A stretch of DNA of 64,000 nucleotides, taken from Clostridia bacterium. GTDB taxonomy: Bacteria; Bacillota; Clostridia; UMGS1883. This document shows, piece by piece, positions 1,762 through 26,188 of this stretch; the stretch's first letter is position 1; each line of letters begins with the position of its first letter. The notes beneath the pieces were generated by a model, which was given only the letters and a program-made list of their open reading frames with translations, had not been told where the DNA came from and made no database searches. Location: the NCBI GenBank assembly GCA_045661145.1, contig JAZRFC010000075.1:20763-84762 (forward strand), in the 5' to 3' direction. The translations under genes and the position numbers were made by a program.

Positions 1762-3945
1762 TCAATTCTCTTCCCTCTTAACAAATTTTACATAGATTTT
1801 TGTTCCTGCCGCCACTTCGGATTTTGCCTTTGGGCTTTGACTTACTGCTATATAATCAGCAGGAATTGTTCCGCTGTTTGCGGCATCAAGCTCCATACTG
1901 AGTCCTGCATTTTCGATAGTTGCCTTTGCATTTTTATAGTTCATTCCTATAACATCGGGAACAATTGCCGTTCCCTGAGTTTCTTCCTTTTGGGTGTACG
2001 CAATTACAACGCCACCCTTATGAAGCTTTGTTCCTGCTGCAGGAATCTGGTTTGTAATCTTTTCTCCGTTACCCTTGGGATTGATTTTAAGTCCCAGATT
2101 ATCAAGCTTTACAAGTGCTTCCTGCACAGTAAGCCCGTTAATATTAGGTACTGTTACAGATATTTTATCCTTGTTTTCCTCTGTGGGCTGAGGAGCATAT
2201 CCAAGGTAAGGAAGAACATCTTCAAAAATTCTTCCTACCGCCGGTGCTGCAATTGCACCACCGCCTGTTGCTCCTGCATGAGGCTCGTCAAGAAGCAGAA
2301 GACATACAAGCTGGGGATTGTCGGCAGGTGCTACGCCTATAAATGATGCAATGTATTCTCCGCTTCCTCGGGGAAGCTTTTCACTTGTTCCTGTTTTTCC
2401 GCCAATACGGAAGCCTGCAACATATCCGCCTTTACCTGTTCCCTCTGCTACAACGCGTTCCATCATACCGCGCATCTGCACGCTGGTTTCTTTGGAAATC
2501 ACATTGCGGACAAGCTCGGGTTCAAAGGTTTCAATTACATTTCCATCTGTATCGGTATATGCTTTTATTATACGGGGTTTCATAAGGTTTCCTTCGTTCA
2601 CAACGGCTGAAACGGCACTTATAAGTTGCAGTGGTGTAATTGTAAAGGTCTGCCCGAAAGATGATGTCGCCAAATCCACAACACCAAGCTTCTGATGGAA
2701 TGTTCCGGCAGATTCACCGGGGATTGTAAAGCCGGTCTTTTCAGTAAGGCCAAAGGCTTTATAATATTTTTGGAAAGTTGTTGCACCCATTCTTGAAGCA
2801 AGCTCCATTACAAACGGGTTGCAGGAATTCATAAGCCCCTGAGCGAAGGTTTCTTCTCCGTGTCCGGCGTGCTGCCAGCAATGGATACTGCGGTTTGCCA
2901 CCTGTCTGACACCTGAGCAGGAGAATACGTCCTGCGGAGATGCAACACCCTCTTCAAGAGCCGCTGCCGCAACTATTGTTTTAAAAGTCGAACCCGGCTC
3001 GTAGGAGTCTACAACGGCTTTGTTACGCCACATTTTTGTGACAGCCTTGTTATATGCTTCTGTATAAGCGTCACCCTCAAGTTCAAGGGCATCGAGTTGC
3101 TCTAAAAGAAGCTGATCCGTTATAACACGGGGGGCGTTCAGGTCATAAGTCGGAACTACTGCCATAGCAAGGATTTCTCCGGTATTGGGATCCATAACAA
3201 TAGCGGCACCGCCATTTCCCAGAAGATTTTCCTCATACGCCTGCTGAAGATGTTTTTCAGTATATCGCTGTATAGTTTCATCAATAGTCAGGACAACACC
3301 CTTGCCGTCCTGCGGTTCAATGTAGTTTTCGTATTTAAATGGCATTTCGTTGTTTGCAACATCCTTTGCCGCAACGATTCTGCCGTCAACACCGCGAAGC
3401 TGTTCATCAAGAACATTTTCCAGACCTTCAAGACCCTGATTGTCACTTCCCGTAAACCCGATAACTTGTGCCGCAAGCGAGCCGTAGGGATAGTAACGCT
3501 TTGAATCTTCTTCAAAATAAACTCCCGTAAGTTTTTCGCTTCTGATAAGGTCAGCAACGCTTTTTTCAACCTGCTTTGCAACGACCACCGACTGTCTGTT
3601 TGTACGGGAAATCTGTTTTCTTAAATTCGCCTCATCTACTCCAAGGATTTTTACAAGAGCGTTTACAACCTCTTCCTCATTTTTGCTCTTTTCTATTTCC
3701 TGGGGGTTCAGGGTAACTCTTTCAGCAGATGCACTTTGTGCAAGAATTTTTAAGTTGCGGTCATAAATGGAGCCGCGTTTTGCACTAATTATACTATCGC
3801 GGGTCTGCTGTTCAGCCGCCATTCTGCTGTATTCTTCACCGCGGACAAACTGTATCCATGCAAGTCTTATCAGAAGCACCAGCACGCCCACAAGGAAAAA
3901 AAGTGTTATTAATTTCATTCGTTTTTTTATGGCTCTTGTCGGCAT
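1762..3945 (-). CDS. Class B penicillin-binding protein (FtsI/SpoVD/PBP2B-like transpeptidase) with C-terminal PASTA domain
   Basis: 727 aa with an N-terminal TM anchor, the transpeptidase motifs STFK and KTGT, and a C-terminal PASTA-like segment (VPNINGLTVQEALVKLDNLGLKI). It sits between ftsL and murE. Confidence 0.9.
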   Translation of the reverse strand: MPTRAIKKRMKLITLFFLVGVLVLLIRLAWIQFVRGEEYSRMAAEQQTRDSIISAKRGSIYDRNLKILAQSASAERVTLNPQEIEKSKNEEEVVNALVKILGVDEANLRKQISRTNRQSVVVAKQVEKSVADLIRSEKLTGVYFEEDSKRYYPYGSLAAQVIGFTGSDNQGLEGLENVLDEQLRGVDGRIVAAKDVANNEMPFKYENYIEPQDGKGVVLTIDETIQRYTEKHLQQAYEENLLGNGGAAIVMDPNTGEILAMAVVPTYDLNAPRVITDQLLLEQLDALELEGDAYTEAYNKAVTKMWRNKAVVDSYEPGSTFKTIVAAAALEEGVASPQDVFSCSGVRQVANRSIHCWQHAGHGEETFAQGLMNSCNPFVMELASRMGATTFQKYYKAFGLTEKTGFTIPGESAGTFHQKLGVVDLATSSFGQTFTITPLQLISAVSAVVNEGNLMKPRIIKAYTDTDGNVIETFEPELVRNVISKETSVQMRGMMERVVAEGTGKGGYVAGFRIGGKTGTSEKLPRGSGEYIASFIGVAPADNPQLVCLLLLDEPHAGATGGGAIAAPAVGRIFEDVLPYLGYAPQPTEENKDKISVTVPNINGLTVQEALVKLDNLGLKINPKGNGEKITNQIPAAGTKLHKGGVVIAYTQKEETQGTAIVPDVIGMNYKNAKATIENAGLSMELDAANSGTIPADYIAVSQSPKAKSEVAAGTKIYVKFVKREEN

Positions 3946-22424: not shown

Positions 22425-22952
22425 TTATTCCAGCGGTTCAATCTGGTAGAAGTCAAACTCTACCTGCATTTCTCTGCCGCCGAACATGGTAACCATAACG
22501 CTAACCTTACGTTTTTCGTTATTGATTTCCAATACTTCACCCATAAAGCCTTCCATAGAGCCGTCGGTAATACGAACTGTATCGCCAACGTCAATGCCAA
22601 GGTCAACTGTCACAGTTTCAACACCGAGACGTTCAACCTCTGCTTCAGAAAGCGGAACGGGTTTGCTTCCCGGTCCTACAAAGCCCGTACAACCACGGGT
22701 ATTGCGAACCACATACCAACTTTCGTCGGTCATTTTCATTTTTATAAATACATATCCGGGGTAAATCTTTCTGGTAACGGCTTTCTTTTCACCCTTATCG
22801 TTTTCCTCGATTGCTTCCTCGACAGGAATGCAAACTTCACCGATAAGTTCACCGAGGCCGCGGTTTTCAACAGTTTTTTCAATACTGTCTTTTACCTTGT
22901 TTTCGTAACCCGAATAAGTATGAGCAACATACCACTTAAATTCAGCACTCAT
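22425..22952 (-). CDS. nusG: Transcription termination/antitermination factor NusG
   Basis: [16 protein letters not shown] (NGN domain) with a C-terminal KOW domain. Confidence 0.93.
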
Positions 22953-22993
22953 AATATATCAGGCGAAGCGCCCTTCCTCCTTTACTGTAATAA

Positions 22994-23209
22994 TCAGCGA
23001 ATAATGAATTTACCGGCTAAGAAAGTAAAGAGTGCATCAAGGCCGAAAATTACAAGACCGATGAGGATAAGTGCCGCAATAACAATCAAAGTGTTGTTAA
23101 GAAGCTGTTTCTTTGAGGGCCAAACAACCTTCTTGAATTCGGATTTAGTACCTTTAATAGATTTGCCGATACGACGGAAGAAGCCTTCCTTTTTAATATT
23201 TTCTCCCAT
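22994..23209 (-). CDS. secE: Preprotein translocase subunit SecE
   Basis: 71 aa with KKVVWPSKKQLLNNTLIVIAALILIGL. Confidence 0.9.
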   Translation of the reverse strand: MGENIKKEGFFRRIGKSIKGTKSEFKKVVWPSKKQLLNNTLIVIAALILIGLVIFGLDALFTFLAGKFIIR

Positions 23210-23225
23210 TAAAGTTCACCTTCTA

Positions 23226-23375
23226 TTACTTAGATTCTTTATGCAGTGTGTGCTTGCGGCAGAAAGGACAATACTTATTCATTTCAAGTCTGTCAGGATT
23301 GTTCTTCTTATTTTTAATAGTATTGTAGTTACGCTGCTTGCATTCTGTGCATGCCAATGTTATTTTAACTCTCAT
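23226..23375 (-). CDS. rpmG: 50S ribosomal protein L33
   Basis: Own translation gives [49 protein letters not shown] (49 aa) with the L33 CxxC...CxxC zinc ribbon. It is too short for the ORF track. Confidence 0.9.
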
Positions 23376-23722
23376 GATTCTGCGCCTCCTGAGTAAGAAT
23401 TTGCCTCGATTTTTTATGCACGTAAAAAAAACCCTGCATAGCGAGGTAAGAATAATATACCATATGTGATTTTTTTTGTCAACACATTTTTTCGGGAAAT
23501 TTTCATTTTTTTAGGTCATTACTATATATAAGGAAGAAAGGGAGCCAACGGCACAAGATAGGCATGGGATTACCTCAAAAATGATAAAATATTTAATGTT
23601 CTTTTATGTAAAAATTCATCCTGCCTTTTGAATTAAAATCTGCATTCAATTCAGTTAATTTATTCTCTGCCCATTTAGTGTCTTTATCAATCCACCACTT
23701 TGAATCAGGATAACATACATTT

Positions 23723-23919
23723 GCACGAAGTGCAACATCGTTTACACCTTAGGTGTAACATCATTGATGCGAAGCATCACATCGTTTGTGCAATAGCACA
23801 ACATCATTTTGTGTCCGTGAATATTTTTTGTTTGTGGCAAAGCCACAAAATGATGTTCAGGCAAAGCCTGAAATGGTGTTGACCGTAAGCGGTCAAATGA
23901 TGTTGTGTCCATAGGACAC
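23723..23919. repeat. Array of 8 short hairpin units (~22-23 bp period); units 1-4 end in AACATC(A/G)TT and units 5-8 end in its reverse complement AAATG(A/G)TGTT
   Basis: Read directly from the sequence (details in the findings). It is not CRISPR-like because there is no conserved repeat and no spacers of spacer length. Confidence 0.6.
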
Positions 23920-23957
23920 AAATACAAAAAAGCAAGCCTTACGACTTGCTTTTTTGA

Positions 23958-24033
23958 TGGTGGGAACAATAGGGCTCGAACCTATGACCCTCTGCTTGTA
24001 AGGCAGATGCTCTCCCAGCTGAGCTATGCTCCC
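23958..24033 (-). tRNA. tRNA-Val (anticodon UAC)
   Basis: The reverse complement GGGAGCATAGCTCAGCTGGGAGAGCATCTGCCTTACAAGCAGAGGGTCATAGGTTCGAGCCCTATTGTTCCCACCA has anticodon loop CTTACAA. Confidence 0.9.
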
Positions 24034-24036
24034 ATA

Positions 24037-24111
24037 TGGTGACCCGTACGAGATTTGAACTCGTGTTACCGCCGTGAAAGGGCGGTGTCTTAACCGCTTG
24101 ACCAACGGGCC
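24037..24111 (-). tRNA. tRNA-Glu (anticodon UUC)
   Basis: The reverse complement GGCCCGTTGGTCAAGCGGTTAAGACACCGCCCTTTCACGGCGGTAACACGAGTTCAAATCTCGTACGGGTCACCA has anticodon loop CTTTCAC. Confidence 0.9.
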
Positions 24112-24115
24112 AAAG

Positions 24116-24192
24116 TGGTAGCGGCGAGTGGGCTCGAACCACCGACCTAACGGGTATGAACCGTTTGCTCTAGCCAACTGAGCTACACCGCC
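24116..24192 (-). tRNA. tRNA with CAU anticodon (elongator Met, or Ile2 if lysidine-modified)
   Basis: The reverse complement GGCGGTGTAGCTCAGTTGGCTAGAGCAAACGGTTCATACCCGTTAGGTCGGTGGTTCGAGCCCACTCGCCGCTACCA has anticodon loop TTCATAC. Confidence 0.85.
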
Positions 24193-24225
24193 ACATGTAC
24201 AAGACTTTCGCCTGACACATTGGCT

Positions 24226-24254
24226 ATTATAATATAGCGTTTTACAAAAGTCAA
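24226..24254 (-). promoter_or_regulatory. Consensus sigma-A promoter of the tRNA Met-Glu-Val operon
   Basis: On the minus strand, TTGACT then a 17-bp spacer then TATAAT. Confidence 0.65.
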
Positions 24255-24277
24255 GTATTTTTTTCACTTTTTTTCAA

Positions 24278-24712
24278 TTATTTCCGAAGCAGCTCGTCAA
24301 ATGCCTCTATATAGCCATTCAGTCCCTTTCCCGTAATCGTCTTTTGGGCAACAAGGGAAATATAGGAAAACTGACGGAAGCTTTCCCTCTCCTCTATTTT
24401 GGAAATATGCACCTCTACCGTGGGGATTGCTACTGTCTTGAGTGCATCTAAAATAGCGATGCTTGTATGCGTATAAGCGGCAGGGTTTATGATTATCCCG
24501 TCAGTATTCCCGTACGCCGCCTGAATTCTGTCTACAATATCTCCCTCGTGATTTGACTGATAGAACTCCACCTCCACGCCTTTTTTGTCGGCGTGTGCCT
24601 GAACCATTTCTACCAAATCATTATAGGTAGACTTTCCGTACACATCAGGCTCGCGTATTCCCAGCATATTAAGATTGGGGCCGTTAATAACAAGTATCTT
24701 CATAAGTATCAC
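24278..24712 (-). CDS. aroQ: 3-dehydroquinate dehydratase, type II
   Basis: MKILVINGPNLNMLGIREPDVYG and 144 aa. Confidence 0.92.
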   Translation of the reverse strand: MILMKILVINGPNLNMLGIREPDVYGKSTYNDLVEMVQAHADKKGVEVEFYQSNHEGDIVDRIQAAYGNTDGIIINPAAYTHTSIAILDALKTVAIPTVEVHISKIEERESFRQFSYISLVAQKTITGKGLNGYIEAFDELLRK

Positions 24713-24940
24713 CTTTTATTCATTATTTTAAAATAGGGGATGTTAAAAAAGTCCAGACCGCAAAAAGGCAATAATAATATGGAAATTTAGGTGGTGCTTA
24801 AATCCAAAAACATCTTAATTTGGTTGAAAAATCTCACTTTATTCGATTTTTCTAAGTTTTTAAGCCTTTTTTGCTACGGGCAAACTTCGCCGCTCGCTGT
24901 ATACACATACAGCTTCGGGTAACCCACGGCAAGCCGTGGC

Positions 24941-26188
24941 TCAGTTTGTCCGTTCTGAAGCATTTTTTCCTATCCCCGTACATTTAAGAATTTGTGAGGC
25001 AGTTTCCTGCCACGTTTTTTGCGATTTTACGGAAAAGTGGCTTAATTTCTCGTACAAAGGAAAACGCACCTCGTACATTTCCCGGAGTTTTGATATGCCG
25101 CCTTGGGACAAGGGTCTGCCTTTAGTGGATAATCTTTCAACGTCACGGTCAATGAAAACAACCGTTCCATTCTGGTGTATTATATCGTAGTTTTCTTCCC
25201 TTGTCACAGCACCGCCGCCTGTCGCAATTACACAACCTGACTTTTTGCAAAGGTCGGCGAGGGTTTCCGTTTCTATTTTGCGGAAATGTTCCTCTCCATA
25301 TTTTTCTATAATTTCGGCAGGAGTTTCACCTTTTTTGGCAATTTCCTCGTCACTATCATAAAACTCCCTGCCCAGAAGCTCCGCAAGGTATTGCCCCACG
25401 GTTGATTTTCCCGAGCCGGGCATTCCCACGAGTATAATATTCTTTGTATCTTTTTCAATAATATTTTTTATGCGTGTAATTTCGCTGTCGGGAATTTCCT
25501 TGCCTGTAAATATTTCCGAGGCTTTTTTTGCCTGAGCTACAAGCATACCCAAACCGTTTGCCGTTTTGAGTCCTCGCTTTTCAGCATCAAGGATAAGTTT
25601 AGTTTTTGAAGGGTTGTAGATAAGGTCAAGCACGGCTTCACATTTTTTAAAATCATTAATTTCAACAGGTGACTTTCCCGTTTCGGGATACATTCCCACG
25701 GGAGTTGCATTTACAATAATCTGTGCGTCGTAATAGCTTTCCATATCCCCTGCCTTGATTTCGGCAGAAGTTACCGTCCGCACACTTTTTGCACCCATAT
25801 CGCTAAGAACACAGACCACGGTTTTTGCCGCACCGCCGGTTCCGAGGATGACCGCATCCTTTCCTATTATATCTGCACCCGTTTCCTTTATCTGATAAGA
25901 AAACCCGTAATAGTCCGTGTTATAGCCAACAAGCTTTCCGTCTTTTTTAAGGACAGTATTTACTGCCCCGATTCGGAGTGCATCGGGAGAGATTTCATCC
26001 AGATATTCGATTACGGTCTTCTTATATGGAATTGTGACATTAAGCCCGTCAAACTCCTTTTTCCGAAAGAACTCCCCTACCTCGTTTTCCGCAAGCTCCT
26101 TATATTCATAGGAATAGTCGGCAAGCTCATTATGGATAGGTTTTGAAAAAGAGTGACTGAGCTTTTTCGCAATTAGGTAAATGTTCAT
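24941..26188 (-). CDS. Bifunctional shikimate dehydrogenase / shikimate kinase (AroE-AroK fusion)
   Basis: The N-terminal ~270 aa is shikimate dehydrogenase with a GTGGAAKTVV Rossmann motif. The C-terminal ~140 aa carries the shikimate kinase P-loop ILVGMPGSGKSTVGQYLAELLGREFYDSD. Confidence 0.88.
   Translation of the reverse strand: MNIYLIAKKLSHSFSKPIHNELADYSYEYKELAENEVGEFFRKKEFDGLNVTIPYKKTVIEYLDEISPDALRIGAVNTVLKKDGKLVGYNTDYYGFSYQIKETGADIIGKDAVILGTGGAAKTVVCVLSDMGAKSVRTVTSAEIKAGDMESYYDAQIIVNATPVGMYPETGKSPVEINDFKKCEAVLDLIYNPSKTKLILDAEKRGLKTANGLGMLVAQAKKASEIFTGKEIPDSEITRIKNIIEKDTKNIILVGMPGSGKSTVGQYLAELLGREFYDSDEEIAKKGETPAEIIEKYGEEHFRKIETETLADLCKKSGCVIATGGGAVTREENYDIIHQNGTVVFIDRDVERLSTKGRPLSQGGISKLREMYEVRFPLYEKLSHFSVKSQKTWQETASQILKCTGIGKNASERTN

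Follow-up and report, generated by a model that had tools for sequence, protein, structure and literature searches.

A mirrored mini-hairpin array behind a clostridial tRNA operon as a probable remnant of a PF05635 cassette related to Gut-1 RNA

We found that an intergenic array of small hairpins at 23723–23919 of the window (the whole 64,000-nt stretch of Clostridia bacterium DNA analysed here, from contig JAZRFC010000075.1) is very likely a block of cis-acting repeats that belonged to a small accessory cassette, the gene of which has been lost at this locus, leaving an orphan array that is a sister variant of Gut-1 RNA (RF01706). The identification of the array as a cassette remnant is well supported. 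How it works is a more tentative matter: we think it possible that the hairpins fold out and that the linkers between them form a platform for the protein encoded by the cassette itself. Cassette identity and binding-platform mechanism together make up our best explanation, to which we assign a probability of roughly 0.5.

Anatomy and acquisition of the array

As a first-pass annotation made from the sequence alone had described, the array consists of eight hairpin units with variable stems and mirrored tails, located between a tRNA Met-Glu-Val operon and rpmG; the sequence and a repeat search both bore this out. Four perfect mini-hairpins with AACATC(A/G)TT linkers are followed by four with the mirrored linker AAATG(A/G)TGTT. 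The repeat search of the window returned the direct repeat families GTGCAACATCGTT/GTGTAACATCATT/GCACAACATCATT and AAATGATGTT/AAATGGTGTT/AAATGATGTT, and the mirror relation of the two linker families is seen, for example, in the arms at 23800–23813 and 23844–23857, which are 100% complementary over 14 nt. When the whole window was scanned for hairpin runs (stem of at least 5, loop of 3–5, gaps of up to 16), runs of at least four consecutive perfect hairpins occurred in the 64 kb only at 23721–23801 and 23831–23921, and runs in 50 local shuffles never exceeded three. The motif AAYGRTGT is present 23 times in the 64 kb, compared with 9.4 ± 3.2 expected, and seven of these sites lie inside 23735–23903, where four minus-strand sites precede three plus-strand ones. 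The array also folds far better than shuffled sequence on both strands (z = −7.8 and −7.95; 0/200 shuffles as good).

The hairpins, which had been given stems of 4–6 bp and 3-nt loops, are real, although the stems reach 6–8 bp when the conserved T-T/A-A closing pairs are included and U7 has either a 4-nt loop or a bulged stem. The conserved part of the array measures 7–10 nt, the variable part is a palindrome of 11–16 nt and no cas genes were found among the ORFs near the array, in agreement with the earlier judgement that it is unlike a CRISPR array (identical repeats of 24–48 nt with spacers of 26–72 nt). Periods that are not multiples of three, and stops in all frames, led us to reject a coding repeat (AAT-GAT-GTT, read as N-D-V).

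The half-array nearest the gene stub described below, U1–U4 (23721..23809), has the plus-strand linkers ACATCGTTT, AACATCATTG, CACATCGTTTG and CAACATCATTTT, with AAYGATGT on the minus strand. Its hairpins U1 (TGCAC-GAA-GTGCA), U2 (ACACC..GGTGT) and U3 (GATGC-GAA-GCATC) are position-specific and common to loci L313, L267, L227 or L252. The centre, GTGTCCGTGAATATTTTTTGTTT (23810..23834), had been called degenerate; it is so, but as a decayed copy of a central element, TTTGTGTCCGC-loop-GCGGA, that is conserved in homologues (alignment A3, columns 108–150), where this hairpin is paired in five of seven aligned sequences and broken in the window. The half-array nearest the terminator, U5–U7 (23835..23904), carries the plus-strand linkers AAAATGATGTT, AAATGGTGTT and AAATGATGTT and has its homologous half in the same alignment. 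The terminal hairpin U8, TTGTGTCC-ATA-GGACACAA (23903..23921, minus strand), is the conserved terminator-proximal end of window-type arrays: the form GTGTCC-NNN-GGACAC stands at the same position in L227, L252, L263, L267 and L313, always adjoining a terminator, and all seven base pairs are retained in the 6/6 sequences that cover U8. Six loci align with the window array along its full length, position-specific hairpins included, and 12 of 50 predicted pairs in the alignment of homologues still pair after changes on both sides.

The setting of the array is chromosomal and housekeeping, with tRNA genes, rpmG, secE, nusG and aro genes as neighbours. The last gene of the tRNA operon, tRNA-Val(UAC), lies at 23958..24033 on the minus strand (ARAGORN; Rfam tRNA, 69.5 bits), and the cassette begins directly at its 3′ end. 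A bidirectional Rho-independent terminator, with a 14-bp stem and then a T run, occupies 23925..23956 (minus strand). The array sits between this tRNA-Val terminator and the rpmG promoter, a location at which a 23S rRNA insertion (helix 25 or 45) was rejected. Three relatives (L001, L007 and L008) have flanks 96–97% identical to the window at the same tRNA-Val/rpmG junction; blastn homology with them ends at 23564 and restarts at 23917–23950, and the junction measures 23–59 nt in the relatives versus about 350–385 nt in the window. By this comparison, the whole stretch gained by the lineage is 23565..23956 (minus strand), comprising terminator, array, promoter remnant and gene stub, in place of about 25–75 nt in the relatives. 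The terminator is unlike the one at the same place in the three relatives and probably arrived as part of the cassette instead of descending from the original terminator of the tRNA operon. We found no target-site duplication or clean insertion boundary at the window locus, the alignment being one of replacement rather than insertion, and the motif cluster was absent in all 80 NusG loci fetched for a check of orthologous conservation. An integrase arm site or att remnant was rejected for lack of a recurrent integrase and of a duplicated tRNA 3′ end in the window. Because the array is absent in the closest relatives and has many copies elsewhere, it is a widespread element that this particular lineage acquired, rather than a relic private to it. 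The first-pass annotation had tied a strain-specific relic to absence from close relatives together with a lack of other copies, and the outcome was mixed, since the array is missing from the orthologous junction of close relatives but abundant elsewhere.

The same locus speaks to the suggestion that the tRNA Met-Glu-Val transcript carries the array as a structured 3′ trailer or as a region where it is processed. Operon and array share a strand, with the array immediately downstream, and at least 14 related arrays are also preceded by a tRNA gene; the tRNAs are those for Ala, Arg, Gln, Leu, Ser, Tyr, Thr, Trp, Pro and Val, with at least nine identities other than Val among the related loci. 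However, the strong terminator stands between tRNA and array, close relatives keep the tRNA operon without the array and many arrays elsewhere have no adjacent tRNA gene, so a tRNA trailer is most improbable.

At its other end, the array overlaps a degenerate sigma-70-type promoter of the lost gene (23707..23735, minus strand), with a −35 box, TTGCAC (23735..23730), inside U1, a 17-nt spacer and a −10 box, TATCCT (23712..23707). The homologous position of L267 reads TTGCAC-17-TATAAT, plus a TG extension, and local alignment of the window with L267 scored 62, against a maximum of 47 among 200 shuffles. Farther on, at 23593..23674 (minus strand), is the probable stub of a PF05635 four-helix-bundle gene, ATG(G)GCAGAGAATAAATTAACTGAATTGAATGCAGATTTT, which reads M-A-E-N-K-L-T-E-L-N-A-D-F if one G is removed, an assumed 1-nt frameshift, and continues into unrelated sequence until the stop. 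After this frameshift, 9/13 residues are identical to the N terminus of the L241 protein, MKENKLAELSMDF, and tblastn returned a weak match (E = 10, query residues 3–13) in the expected orientation, 68 nt from the array. Intact PF05635 genes occupy the homologous position in L267, L296, L310, L332, L333 and L342. The match is short, at 13 residues, and descent of the 13-codon stub from a PF05635 gene is probable rather than proven. The window array is an orphan, of whose cassette only the degenerate promoter and the probable stub of about 13 codons remain. In this history, the lineage would have acquired the cassette behind tRNA-Val and later lost most of the gene by deletion.

The array family, PF05635 genes and Gut-1

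Arrays with the same linker and different stems were found in about 60 of 120 metagenome loci and in four loci from a viral collection (L103, L169, L213 and L223). The search pattern demanded a CGAAG loop, which made the scans specific but biased the sample towards GAA loops; most of the output of three-linker pattern scans of viral contigs consisted of coding tandem repeats, with 1–2 true matches among 38–120. Read on the ACATCAT strand, triloops take the form GNA with a C-G closing pair; leaving aside GAA, which the search favoured, 22 of the 47 other triloops are GCA, GTA or GGA. Such loops are of the GCGNAGC type of DNA mini-hairpin, which is extraordinarily stable (PMC13037366, PMC3201870). 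Stems of the ATGATGT family are nearly all Watson–Crick (2 G-T and 3 A-C among roughly 800 pairs), leaving too few other pairs for a strand test based on G-T versus A-C mismatches to decide. The linker differs by lineage (GTGAAG, TGATAT, GTGAAAT, ATGAAAT, AGTGATAT or AATGAAG), whereas the architecture is constant. Every homologous array adjoins a terminator, and the terminator apex TTTGTC-NNNN-GACAAA is conserved among cassettes with different linkers.

Unit spacing is 22–24 bp in the window, which had been read as a two-helical-turn periodicity; across the family it varies from 17 to 29 nt without helical phasing, and the periodicity is incidental. This range bears on the idea of a plasmid or phage iteron, centromere, cos/pac site or origin, in which phased double-stranded sites would stand in a 4+4 inverted arrangement. 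The window spacing and AT-rich centre would suit such a site, as would the viral-classed contigs that carry some relatives (a terminase gene lies about 900 nt downstream of the L103 array, and the L169 array is at a contig end). The family as a whole is unphased, however; rep, par and terminase genes are absent near the window copy, as judged from the ORFs near the array, and near most other copies; the arrays sit in chromosomal housekeeping surroundings, many of them behind tRNA genes; and the palindromic spacers would go unexplained. We therefore disfavour this idea as very unlikely. Of the protein-binding array proposed initially, the repeat platform stays live, but the iteron or centromere version does not. 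A phage cos/pac site or genome end, an idea that came from L103 and L169, was given up because most copies proved chromosomal, and an N4-type hairpin promoter does not fit 4–9 units at 20-nt spacing in bacterial chromosomes. An Rfam scan of L103 gave no match, and BLAST against GenBank phages did not find the array; that search did return an unrelated conserved leader adjoining the L103 array.

The distribution of the arrays raises the alternative of a selfish or structural DNA repeat of the REP/BIME/MITE kind, which would persist as DNA through single-stranded hairpins or mini-cruciforms and for which the PF05635 gene would be an occasional passenger or a trans-acting partner, as RAYT is with REPs. 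Copies are many and their contexts varied, and many are orphans or lie at the ends of short contigs, as is typical of assembly-breaking repeats. Several may lie close together (four within 2.5 kb in L213; three in the 9-kb locus L241), head-to-head and tail-to-tail arrangements both occur and presence varies between close relatives; the very stable GNA triloops and the almost purely Watson–Crick stems also point towards DNA. A PF05635 gene accompanies only about 20% of the arrays for which sufficient flanking sequence is available, and orphan and gene-linked arrays are intact to about the same degree (70% and 74%, respectively, of units with a stem of at least 4 bp), so an independently maintained or mobile element fits these figures at least as well. 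Against this alternative, the window locus shows a replacement without target-site duplication or clean boundary; no transposase, RAYT or integrase recurs beside the arrays, the recurrent neighbours of which are housekeeping genes and PF05635; stems vary between units, unlike those of REPs; and the 64-kb window holds a single array. We regard a DNA repeat as improbable. In the REP/BIME and REPIN–RAYT systems of Proteobacteria (PMC3116915, PMC2817692, PMC3733652), palindrome clusters are likewise dispersed, intergenic and near terminators, arranged head-to-head or tail-to-tail, with many orphans and one small gene flanked by repeats in a minority of copies. REPs conserve the palindrome and a GTAG or CGTC tag, whereas window-type arrays conserve the linker and vary the palindromes; and RAYT is a Y1 transposase, whereas the array-associated protein is a four-helix bundle without a known catalytic motif. 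A REP/BIME (REPIN–RAYT) assignment was rejected on the varying palindromes, the missing tag and the absence of a recurrent transposase-like neighbour.

Using tblastn, we found a PF05635 gene in about 17 array loci, encoding proteins 51–100% identical to one another. PF05635/TIGR02436 is the family of the 23S-rRNA intervening-sequence (IVS) protein S23p and of Avd of diversity-generating retroelements. In at least 13 loci, the array, which usually stands behind a tRNA gene and a terminator, is followed after 51–128 nt by a gene for a protein of about 115 amino acids oriented away from it; the family assignment has Pfam E = 1e-25 to 1e-28 and TIGR02436 E = 1e-27 to 1e-31. The order tRNA, terminator, array, promoter, gene is constant in every module examined in detail, and in L241, L271, L343, L273 and L353 the last linker and the −35 box form one fused sequence (CATTGAAA, CATTTATTGACA). 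The cassette of gut Clostridia (Oscillospirales-like) very likely sits directly behind tRNA genes, with a terminator, two mirrored half-arrays whose units are each a 7–10-nt linker and a small variable hairpin, a sigma-70 promoter or Shine–Dalgarno site and the PF05635/TIGR02436 gene. Most ATGATGT and TGATAT modules have both halves placed after a strong terminator and ahead of a good promoter; in L351 and L311, by contrast, the gap between array and start codon is too short for a promoter, so the array is transcribed there, and one level of action cannot account for every case. The linker does not simply track protein relatedness: L351, 71% identical to L241, has GTGAAG, and L267, 55% identical, has ATGATGT. 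PADLOC returned no defence-system match for the PF05635 protein; a type III toxin–antitoxin array of the ToxI kind (near-identical repeats of about 36 nt) was rejected on this result, on the identity of the downstream gene and on the differing unit stems. In 22/22 loci, upstream arrays had more stop triplets on the sense than on the antisense strand, a weakly informative observation as nusG control regions behaved similarly (46/64).

The association extends beyond Clostridia. Mirrored short repeats, defined as a 6-mer plus its reverse complement occurring at least six times in the gene flanks, bracket 24 of 31 PF05635 genes across phyla, compared with 22 of 385 control positions (6%). The repeats in other phyla are contiguous 7-mers without hairpin interruption, and the array adjoins the start codon in non-clostridial cassettes too. 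In Coxiella, the IVS carries 2–4 tandem heptamers (GACAGAT) just upstream of S23p (PMC4990558). Apart from these heptamers, a literature search found no paper tying PF05635 genes to flanking repeat arrays, and the rule that PF05635 genes are bracketed by mirrored short repeats has apparently not been reported before.

Sister arrays with GUGAAAU or UGAUAU linkers match the Gut-1 model RF01706: half-arrays in L346, L347, L353 and L354 score 59–65 bits (gathering score 50), the first half matching on one strand and the second on the opposite strand. These arrays have the same module design as the others, with tRNA, terminator, two mirrored halves and PF05635 gene. By contrast, an Rfam scan of window positions 22500–25000 and 23700–23960 gave no Gut-1 match even at E ≤ 10, nor did other ATGATGT and GTGAAG arrays match RF01706 at that threshold. 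The window array nevertheless has the general Gut-1 architecture, with at least three small covarying hairpins and one conserved short linker, and gut metagenomes are the source of both; it is a sister variant of Gut-1 with AUGAUGU linkers in place of GUGAAAU, outside the model, and RF01706 covers just part of the array family. In the portion of the original description available to us (PMC2864571), Gut-1, with its three or four small, variable, covarying hairpins and one conserved 7-nt linker, appears as a single noncoding RNA from human gut samples only, with no gene association. We found instead that Gut-1 occurs as mirrored pairs behind terminators and tRNA genes and ahead of PF05635 genes. 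Both the PF05635 cassette context and the kinship with Gut-1 had been missed by the first-pass annotation.

These matches suggest another reading, that each half of the array, in the AUGAUGU orientation, is a free-standing small RNA of about 75–90 nt, with three or four hairpins and conserved single-stranded linkers, one conceivable role being that of a sponge that takes up an RNA-binding protein or another RNA; the gene linkage would then be incidental. Besides the scores of the sister half-arrays, this reading can draw on the rating ‘RNA: Y, not cis-regulatory’ given by Weinberg et al. in 2010 (PMC2864571), on the U-G pair that closes the Gut-1 consensus stems and is possible on that strand only, and on the five-unit, single-orientation L103 array, which ends in a strong terminator. 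On the other hand, no conserved promoter precedes either half, the first of which begins 0–5 nt past the terminator; orientation relative to the adjacent terminator differs between L169 and both L103 and the window; G-U pairs are nearly absent from ATGATGT-family stems; and the window array lacks an RF01706 match. Strong conserved linkage to PF05635 genes and promoters would also go unexplained, and we consider a free-standing RNA to have little probability.

Possible mechanism

For the action of the array we tentatively favour the binding platform, in which the linkers would carry the functional sequence and the hairpins would serve as spacers that fold out. Wherever the strand becomes single-stranded or mini-cruciforms are extruded, the hairpins would collapse and bring the linkers nearly next to one another, so that they come to resemble the unbroken tandem 7-nt repeats found beside PF05635 genes in other phyla. 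The lack of helical phasing and the contiguous 7-mers elsewhere both count for this folded-out form. Half-arrays typically hold 4–5 linkers, and the closest solved relative of the PF05635 protein, 2RLD, has five chains; Xanthomonas S23p is a homopentameric toroid (PMC4990558). The 4–5 quasi-tandem linkers of each half could then dock the PF05635 protein, a pentameric ring in solved relatives, and binding beside or over the −35 box, or on the 5′ leader, would control or insulate cassette expression. We infer single-stranded reading, protein binding and regulation from these correspondences. In the window, where the cognate gene is gone, the array would be active only with a paralogous protein encoded elsewhere and otherwise inert. 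We know of no nucleic-acid binding specificity established for any free-standing PF05635 protein. A conceptual parallel is TRAP, a ring protein that reads 11 (G/U)AG RNA repeats: there an oligomeric ring meets a similar number of short, irregularly spaced leader repeats, and linkers per half-array may be matched to PF05635 subunits in the same manner, although the TRAP fold is unrelated to the predicted four-helix-bundle reader. A pure binding platform leaves the constant reverse complementarity of the two halves unexplained, which counts against it.

That complementarity, the most universal property of the arrays, is the starting point of a close rival that we hold to be unlikely, in which the array is an RNA processing or insulation stem like that of the 23S IVS. 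The linkers of the two halves would pair in read-through RNA, and RNase III or another double-strand RNase would cut the branched stem and free the cassette from its host transcript; in other phyla, complementary arrays flanking the ORF would excise it. The pairing of tails 1–4 with tails 5–8, already envisaged in the first-pass annotation, stays live: linkers pair in the minimum-free-energy folds of the window array, RNAalifold predicts two linker–linker helices, one linker–linker pair changes from A-U to G-C in 2/7 sequences and G-U pairs occur on the plus strand only. The Coxiella 5′ cut falls at the first heptamer repeat (PMC4990558). Arrays that abut the start codon, and hence are transcribed, as in non-clostridial cassettes, L351 and L311, would also suit a processing stem. 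Yet most ATGATGT and TGATAT halves lie past a terminator and upstream of the promoter and would thus rarely be transcribed, the covariation is one event in two closely related sequences and single-orientation arrays exist (L103, L269 and L311). Helices of 7–10 bp broken by four-way junctions are poor RNase III substrates. A processing stem, moreover, needs no repeated linker, and one linker kept over 7–8 units with unrelated hairpins argues for sequence-specific reading.

The clostridial modules share much with the S23p-bearing 23S IVS of Coxiella, Leptospira and others (PMC4990558). Both have a PF05635 family protein, inverted repeats with the ORF and short tandem heptamers or linkers upstream of it (the 4+4 mirrored linkers of the window are like the repeats that accompany the ORF in S23p-type cassettes); both are lodged in stable-RNA transcription units; and both behave as dispensable, decaying elements with an often degenerate ORF. 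They differ in location (23S rRNA helix 45 or 25, compared with a position behind a tRNA operon and terminator in the window), in that IVS heptamers are contiguous whereas clostridial linkers are separated by hairpins, and in that both clostridial halves usually lie upstream of the gene rather than enclosing it; most clostridial modules, unlike the IVS, also carry their own promoter.

Implications for PF05635 proteins and Gut-1

Gut-1 has been in Rfam since 2010, to our knowledge without a function, host or gene context, and we know of no role for PF05635 ‘four helix bundle proteins’, which are very common and have solved structures, outside diversity-generating retroelements. The reason for such an ORF in rRNA intervening sequences is a 30-year-old question. 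Our findings connect the three: the arrays are the clostridial form of the mirrored repeats, paired and beside stable-RNA genes. A broader idea, which we offer as speculative, is that PF05635 proteins and mirrored arrays constitute one widespread, uncharacterised protein–nucleic-acid system in which a pentamer would read 4–5 lineage-specific heptamers. If this is true, the heptamers are contiguous in most phyla and hairpin-separated in gut Clostridia, where they form the Gut-1 motif and its variants; the cassette targets stable-RNA genes, inside 23S rRNA in some phyla and behind tRNA genes here; and dispersed orphan arrays such as that of the window are footprints of the system. Gut-1, free-standing ‘Avd-like’ proteins and rRNA intervening sequences would then share one explanation. 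For annotation, the family accounts for odd clusters of hairpins between genes and for assembly breakpoints in gut Firmicutes, and loose observations become hypotheses that can be tested directly: that the protein binds its own array, that RNase III processes it and that there is autoregulation.

The hairpin array and its relatives

Eight small perfect hairpins, read from the sequence at positions 23721–23921 of the window, form an array that is real, as the first-pass annotation had claimed. Four hairpins are each followed by AACATC(A/G)TT and the other four by its reverse complement, AAATG(A/G)TGTT, with a 25-nt centre separating the two halves. A repeat search recovered both linker families and the mirror relation between them. 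When we scanned the whole window, four or more perfect hairpins followed one another only at 23721–23801 and 23831–23921, and the longest run in shuffled sequences never exceeded three. The motif AAYGRTGT matched 23 times in 64 kb (9.4 expected for the whole window); 7 of the 23 matches fell in a single 169-nt stretch, four on the minus strand followed by three on the plus strand. Both strands of the array had a folding z-score of about −7.8. That annotation held up overall, except that the stems are 6–8 bp long through T-T/A-A closing pairs and the seventh unit has a 4-nt loop or a bulge. Comparison with homologous arrays showed that its ‘degenerate centre’ is the decayed version of one conserved element, and the eighth unit the intact version of another.

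Pattern scans of a viral collection, some contigs of which may be bacterial, found the same linker (ATGATGT, or ACATCAT in the other orientation) with different hairpins at loci L103, L169, L223 and L213, the last with three such arrays. No fewer than about 60 loci among the 120 metagenome matches listed had linkers in clusters of four or more, in a sample skewed by the CGAAG search pattern and by the number of matches listed. ATGATGT units usually precede ACATCAT units; the reverse order, which is the window's own, and arrays of a single orientation were also found. At least six loci (L227, L252, L263, L267, L296 and L313) aligned with the window array over its full length, sharing the position-specific hairpins GATGC-GAA-GCATC, TGCAC-GNA-GTGCA, ACACC..GGTGT and a terminal GTGTCC-NNN-GGACAC. 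Across the window and homologous arrays, 12 of the 50 predicted pairs kept their pairing despite changes on both sides. Units are spaced 17–29 nt apart, with stems of 4–8 bp that are nearly all Watson–Crick. Triloops on the ACATCAT strand are mostly GNA closed by C-G; the search pattern inflated the count of GAA, but of the 47 triloops other than GAA, 22 were GCA, GTA or GGA. C-G-closed GNA triloops form an extraordinarily stable type of DNA mini-hairpin (PMC13037366, PMC3201870).

A rho-independent terminator adjoins every array among the matches listed. At L238, L286, L273, L353, L351, L248, L213 and L169, the terminator that precedes the array shares the apex TTTGTC-NNNN-GACAAA, which is conserved between cassettes with different linkers. 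Judged from this sequence, the terminator probably belongs to the cassette, which would explain why the tRNA-Val terminator of the window is unlike that of its close relatives.

Three human-gut contigs also carry a conserved riboswitch-like leader (L103 2560–2770, minus strand; L211 2500–2672; L212 2223–2390) that is not related to the array and precedes unrelated small genes. Its promoter (TTGACT-17-TAGACT) is followed by a long pairing, TTGCGACA...TGTCGCAGCAA, that encloses a hairpin, and then by a terminator; an Rfam search gave no match at E ≤ 1.

Mirrored repeats accompany PF05635 genes

Clustering of neighbouring ORFs gave mostly housekeeping genes and one recurrent accessory family, a gene for a protein of about 115 amino acids that tblastn found in at least about 17 array loci (51–100% mutual identity). 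In 13 of these loci the gene points away from the array and has its start at a distance of 51–128 nt from it. The protein belongs to PF05635 (23S_rRNA_IVP; E = 1e-25 to 1e-28) and also to TIGR02436, ‘four helix bundle protein’; a PADLOC search with the module proteins gave no match. Among the members of PF05635 are the S23p ORFs found in intervening sequences of 23S rRNA, and the family is similar to Avd, a DGR protein (PMC4990558, PMC10053308). Of the solved structures, the closest (2RLD) contains five chains, and Xanthomonas S23p is a pentameric toroid (PMC4990558).

The module runs in one direction: tRNA, terminator, two mirrored half-arrays, sigma-70 promoter, Shine–Dalgarno site and gene, with the last linker fused to the −35 box in the usual arrangement, where ATGATGT units come first. 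The tRNAs ahead of arrays have at least ten identities. In gut Clostridia this architecture is constant and the linkers differ: GTGAAG in L351, TGATAT in L353, GTGAAAT in L354 and L355, ATGAAAT in L347 and the fourth array of L213, AGTGATAT in L346, and AATGAAG in L356. Four arrays, three of the ATGATGT type and one of the ATGAAAT type, share 2.5 kb of L213 (1–2456), so two linker families coexist in one genome and arrays can cluster densely around small ORFs. About 80% of the arrays with enough flanking sequence are orphans, which are about as intact as gene-linked arrays. Many intact orphans, clustering of arrays and GNA loops of the DNA type would all suit a REP/BIME-like selfish DNA repeat, a reading that we consider improbable. 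At L352, the terminator and first three array units present in the orthologous L351 have been lost by deletion between two short ACGTGC repeats, which shows how such arrays decay.

We then drew PF05635 genes from plasmids, from phage records and from viral contigs. Contiguous tandem repeats, mostly 7 nt long, bracket the gene in Nostoc, Bernardetia, Treponema and many uncultured lineages, lying upstream of it and recurring downstream as their reverse complement (for example, GTAATTC/AATTACG, TAACCTA ×9/AGGTTAT, ATGAGTT ×5/ACTCATT ×7 and TTAGTGA ×17). Such lineage-specific repeats occur in Cyanobacteria, Bacteroidota and Spirochaetota as well as in many uncultured lineages (L350, L349, L348, L345, L357–L378). 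A 6-mer and its reverse complement occurred at least six times in the flanks of 24 of 31 PF05635 genes (median 8), compared with 22 of 385 control positions (6%; median 4). Our search found no published statement of a general rule of repeat bracketing for PF05635.

Stop triplets were more frequent on the sense than on the antisense strand in 22/22 upstream repeat regions (110 nt; L345, L348–L350, L357–L377), and a 7-nt period would put them in all three reading frames; nusG control regions had the same trend, more weakly (46/64). In Monoglobus pectinilyticus (NZ_OY725736.1; L345 1430–1900), a type I restriction-modification operon harbours, between hsdS and hsdR, a PF05635 pseudogene that contains two in-frame stops and has inverted AATTAGGAATGAG repeats on either side, which shows that protein-coding operons can host the cassette.

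The window array as a probable orphaned repeat block

On the minus strand of the window, the tRNA operon promoter (24254–24226) is followed by tRNA-Met, tRNA-Glu and tRNA-Val (24192–23958), a strong terminator (23956–23925), the array (23921–23721), the rpmG promoter (23482–23454) and, downstream of 23375, rpmG, secE, nusG, rplK and rplA. Past the first unit on this strand, the window has the sequence TTGCAC-17 nt-TATCCT, which corresponds to TTGCAC-17 nt-TATAAT in L267, and the local alignment of the two loci scored 62 (shuffle maximum, 47). With one extra G removed, the sequence 68 nt from the array encodes M-A-E-N-K-L-T-E-L-N-A-D-F, identical at 9 of 13 residues to MKENKLAELSMDF of L241. 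The window thus appears to fit the module design, with a putative gene stub of 13 residues; since the remainder of the PF05635 gene is missing, the array is an orphan. We conclude with good confidence that this repeat block belonged to a PF05635 cassette, has been orphaned, and is a sister of Gut-1 RNA.

By its NusG relatives, which include MAGs labelled Oscillospiraceae or Acutalibacteraceae, the source of the window belongs among uncultured gut Clostridia. The closest relatives (NusG 98–99% identical, flanking DNA 96–97%) share the tRNA operon and rpmG promoter, but have 23–59 nt in place of window positions 23565 to ~23950, and a different terminator sequence, which argues that a short spacer and terminator were replaced by ~350–390 nt in the window lineage. 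The array is absent from their orthologous junction, as would befit the strain-specific relic considered in the first-pass annotation, whereas other copies were found elsewhere. In array-less L007 (~3330–3390) and L001 (~60–140), an inverted copy (TGGTGGGAACAA) of the tRNA-Val 3′ end (TTGTTCCCACCA) lies just past the terminator and extends it to a palindrome of ~60 nt, into which part of the tRNA falls. The orthologous region of another close relative, L009 (~190–590, corresponding to window 23560–24030), carries a 45-nt direct duplication of the tRNA-Val 3′ end and its terminator, flanking ~190 nt of GC-rich sequence. This looks like an att duplication left by an integrative element, tiny or collapsed; as the small insert differs from that of the window, the tRNA-Val/rpmG junction seems to change often.

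Gut-1 RNA and a possible role for the linkers

In an Rfam scan of intact modules, RF01706 (Gut-1 RNA), a model of three hairpins joined by GUGAAAU, matched half-arrays at 59–65 bits, the first half on one strand and the second on the opposite strand: L354 607–680(+) and 698–775(−), L353 582–657(+) and 677–752(−), L346 1286–1356 and L347 1296–1368. The portion of the original description consulted (PMC2864571) reports 43 examples from human gut metagenomes only, with neither a function nor a gene association. The mirrored pairs have a tRNA terminator on one side and a PF05635 gene on the other, and thus tie Gut-1 to a clade of hosts (gut Clostridia) and to a gene context, neither of which that portion supplies. 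Neither the window array nor the other ATGATGT and GTGAAG arrays matched RF01706 even at E ≤ 10, which makes the window array a sister variant outside Gut-1 as currently defined. That the arrays act as a free-standing sRNA of the Gut-1 type seems unlikely to us.

From the observed anatomy, homology, gene linkage, terminator and tRNA context and lineage gain, we infer a working model. Because linkers are conserved across units split by unrelated hairpins, they are probably read sequence-specifically; variable spacing and the contiguous heptamers of other phyla suggest reading with the hairpins folded out, which would make the linkers neighbours. Given four or five linkers per half, a pentameric protein and a last linker touching the −35 box or leader, each half-array may serve as a docking platform for the cassette's own PF05635 protein, and docking would control or insulate cassette expression. 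We prefer this model at a probability of roughly one in three. The Coxiella intervening sequence carries two to four copies of the heptamer GACAGAT immediately before S23p, and the first copy is a site of RNase III cleavage (PMC4990558). A close rival, somewhat less probable, is that the two halves pair into an RNase III-type stem, as in 23S intervening sequences; this best accounts for halves that are always complementary, and one linker pair covaries, but it fits poorly with arrays lying between a terminator and a promoter. The earlier suggestions of an iteron or centromere, likewise an origin, and of a tRNA 3′ trailer are disfavoured. The main value of the window array is the general link that it exposes between PF05635 genes, mirrored repeats and Gut-1.
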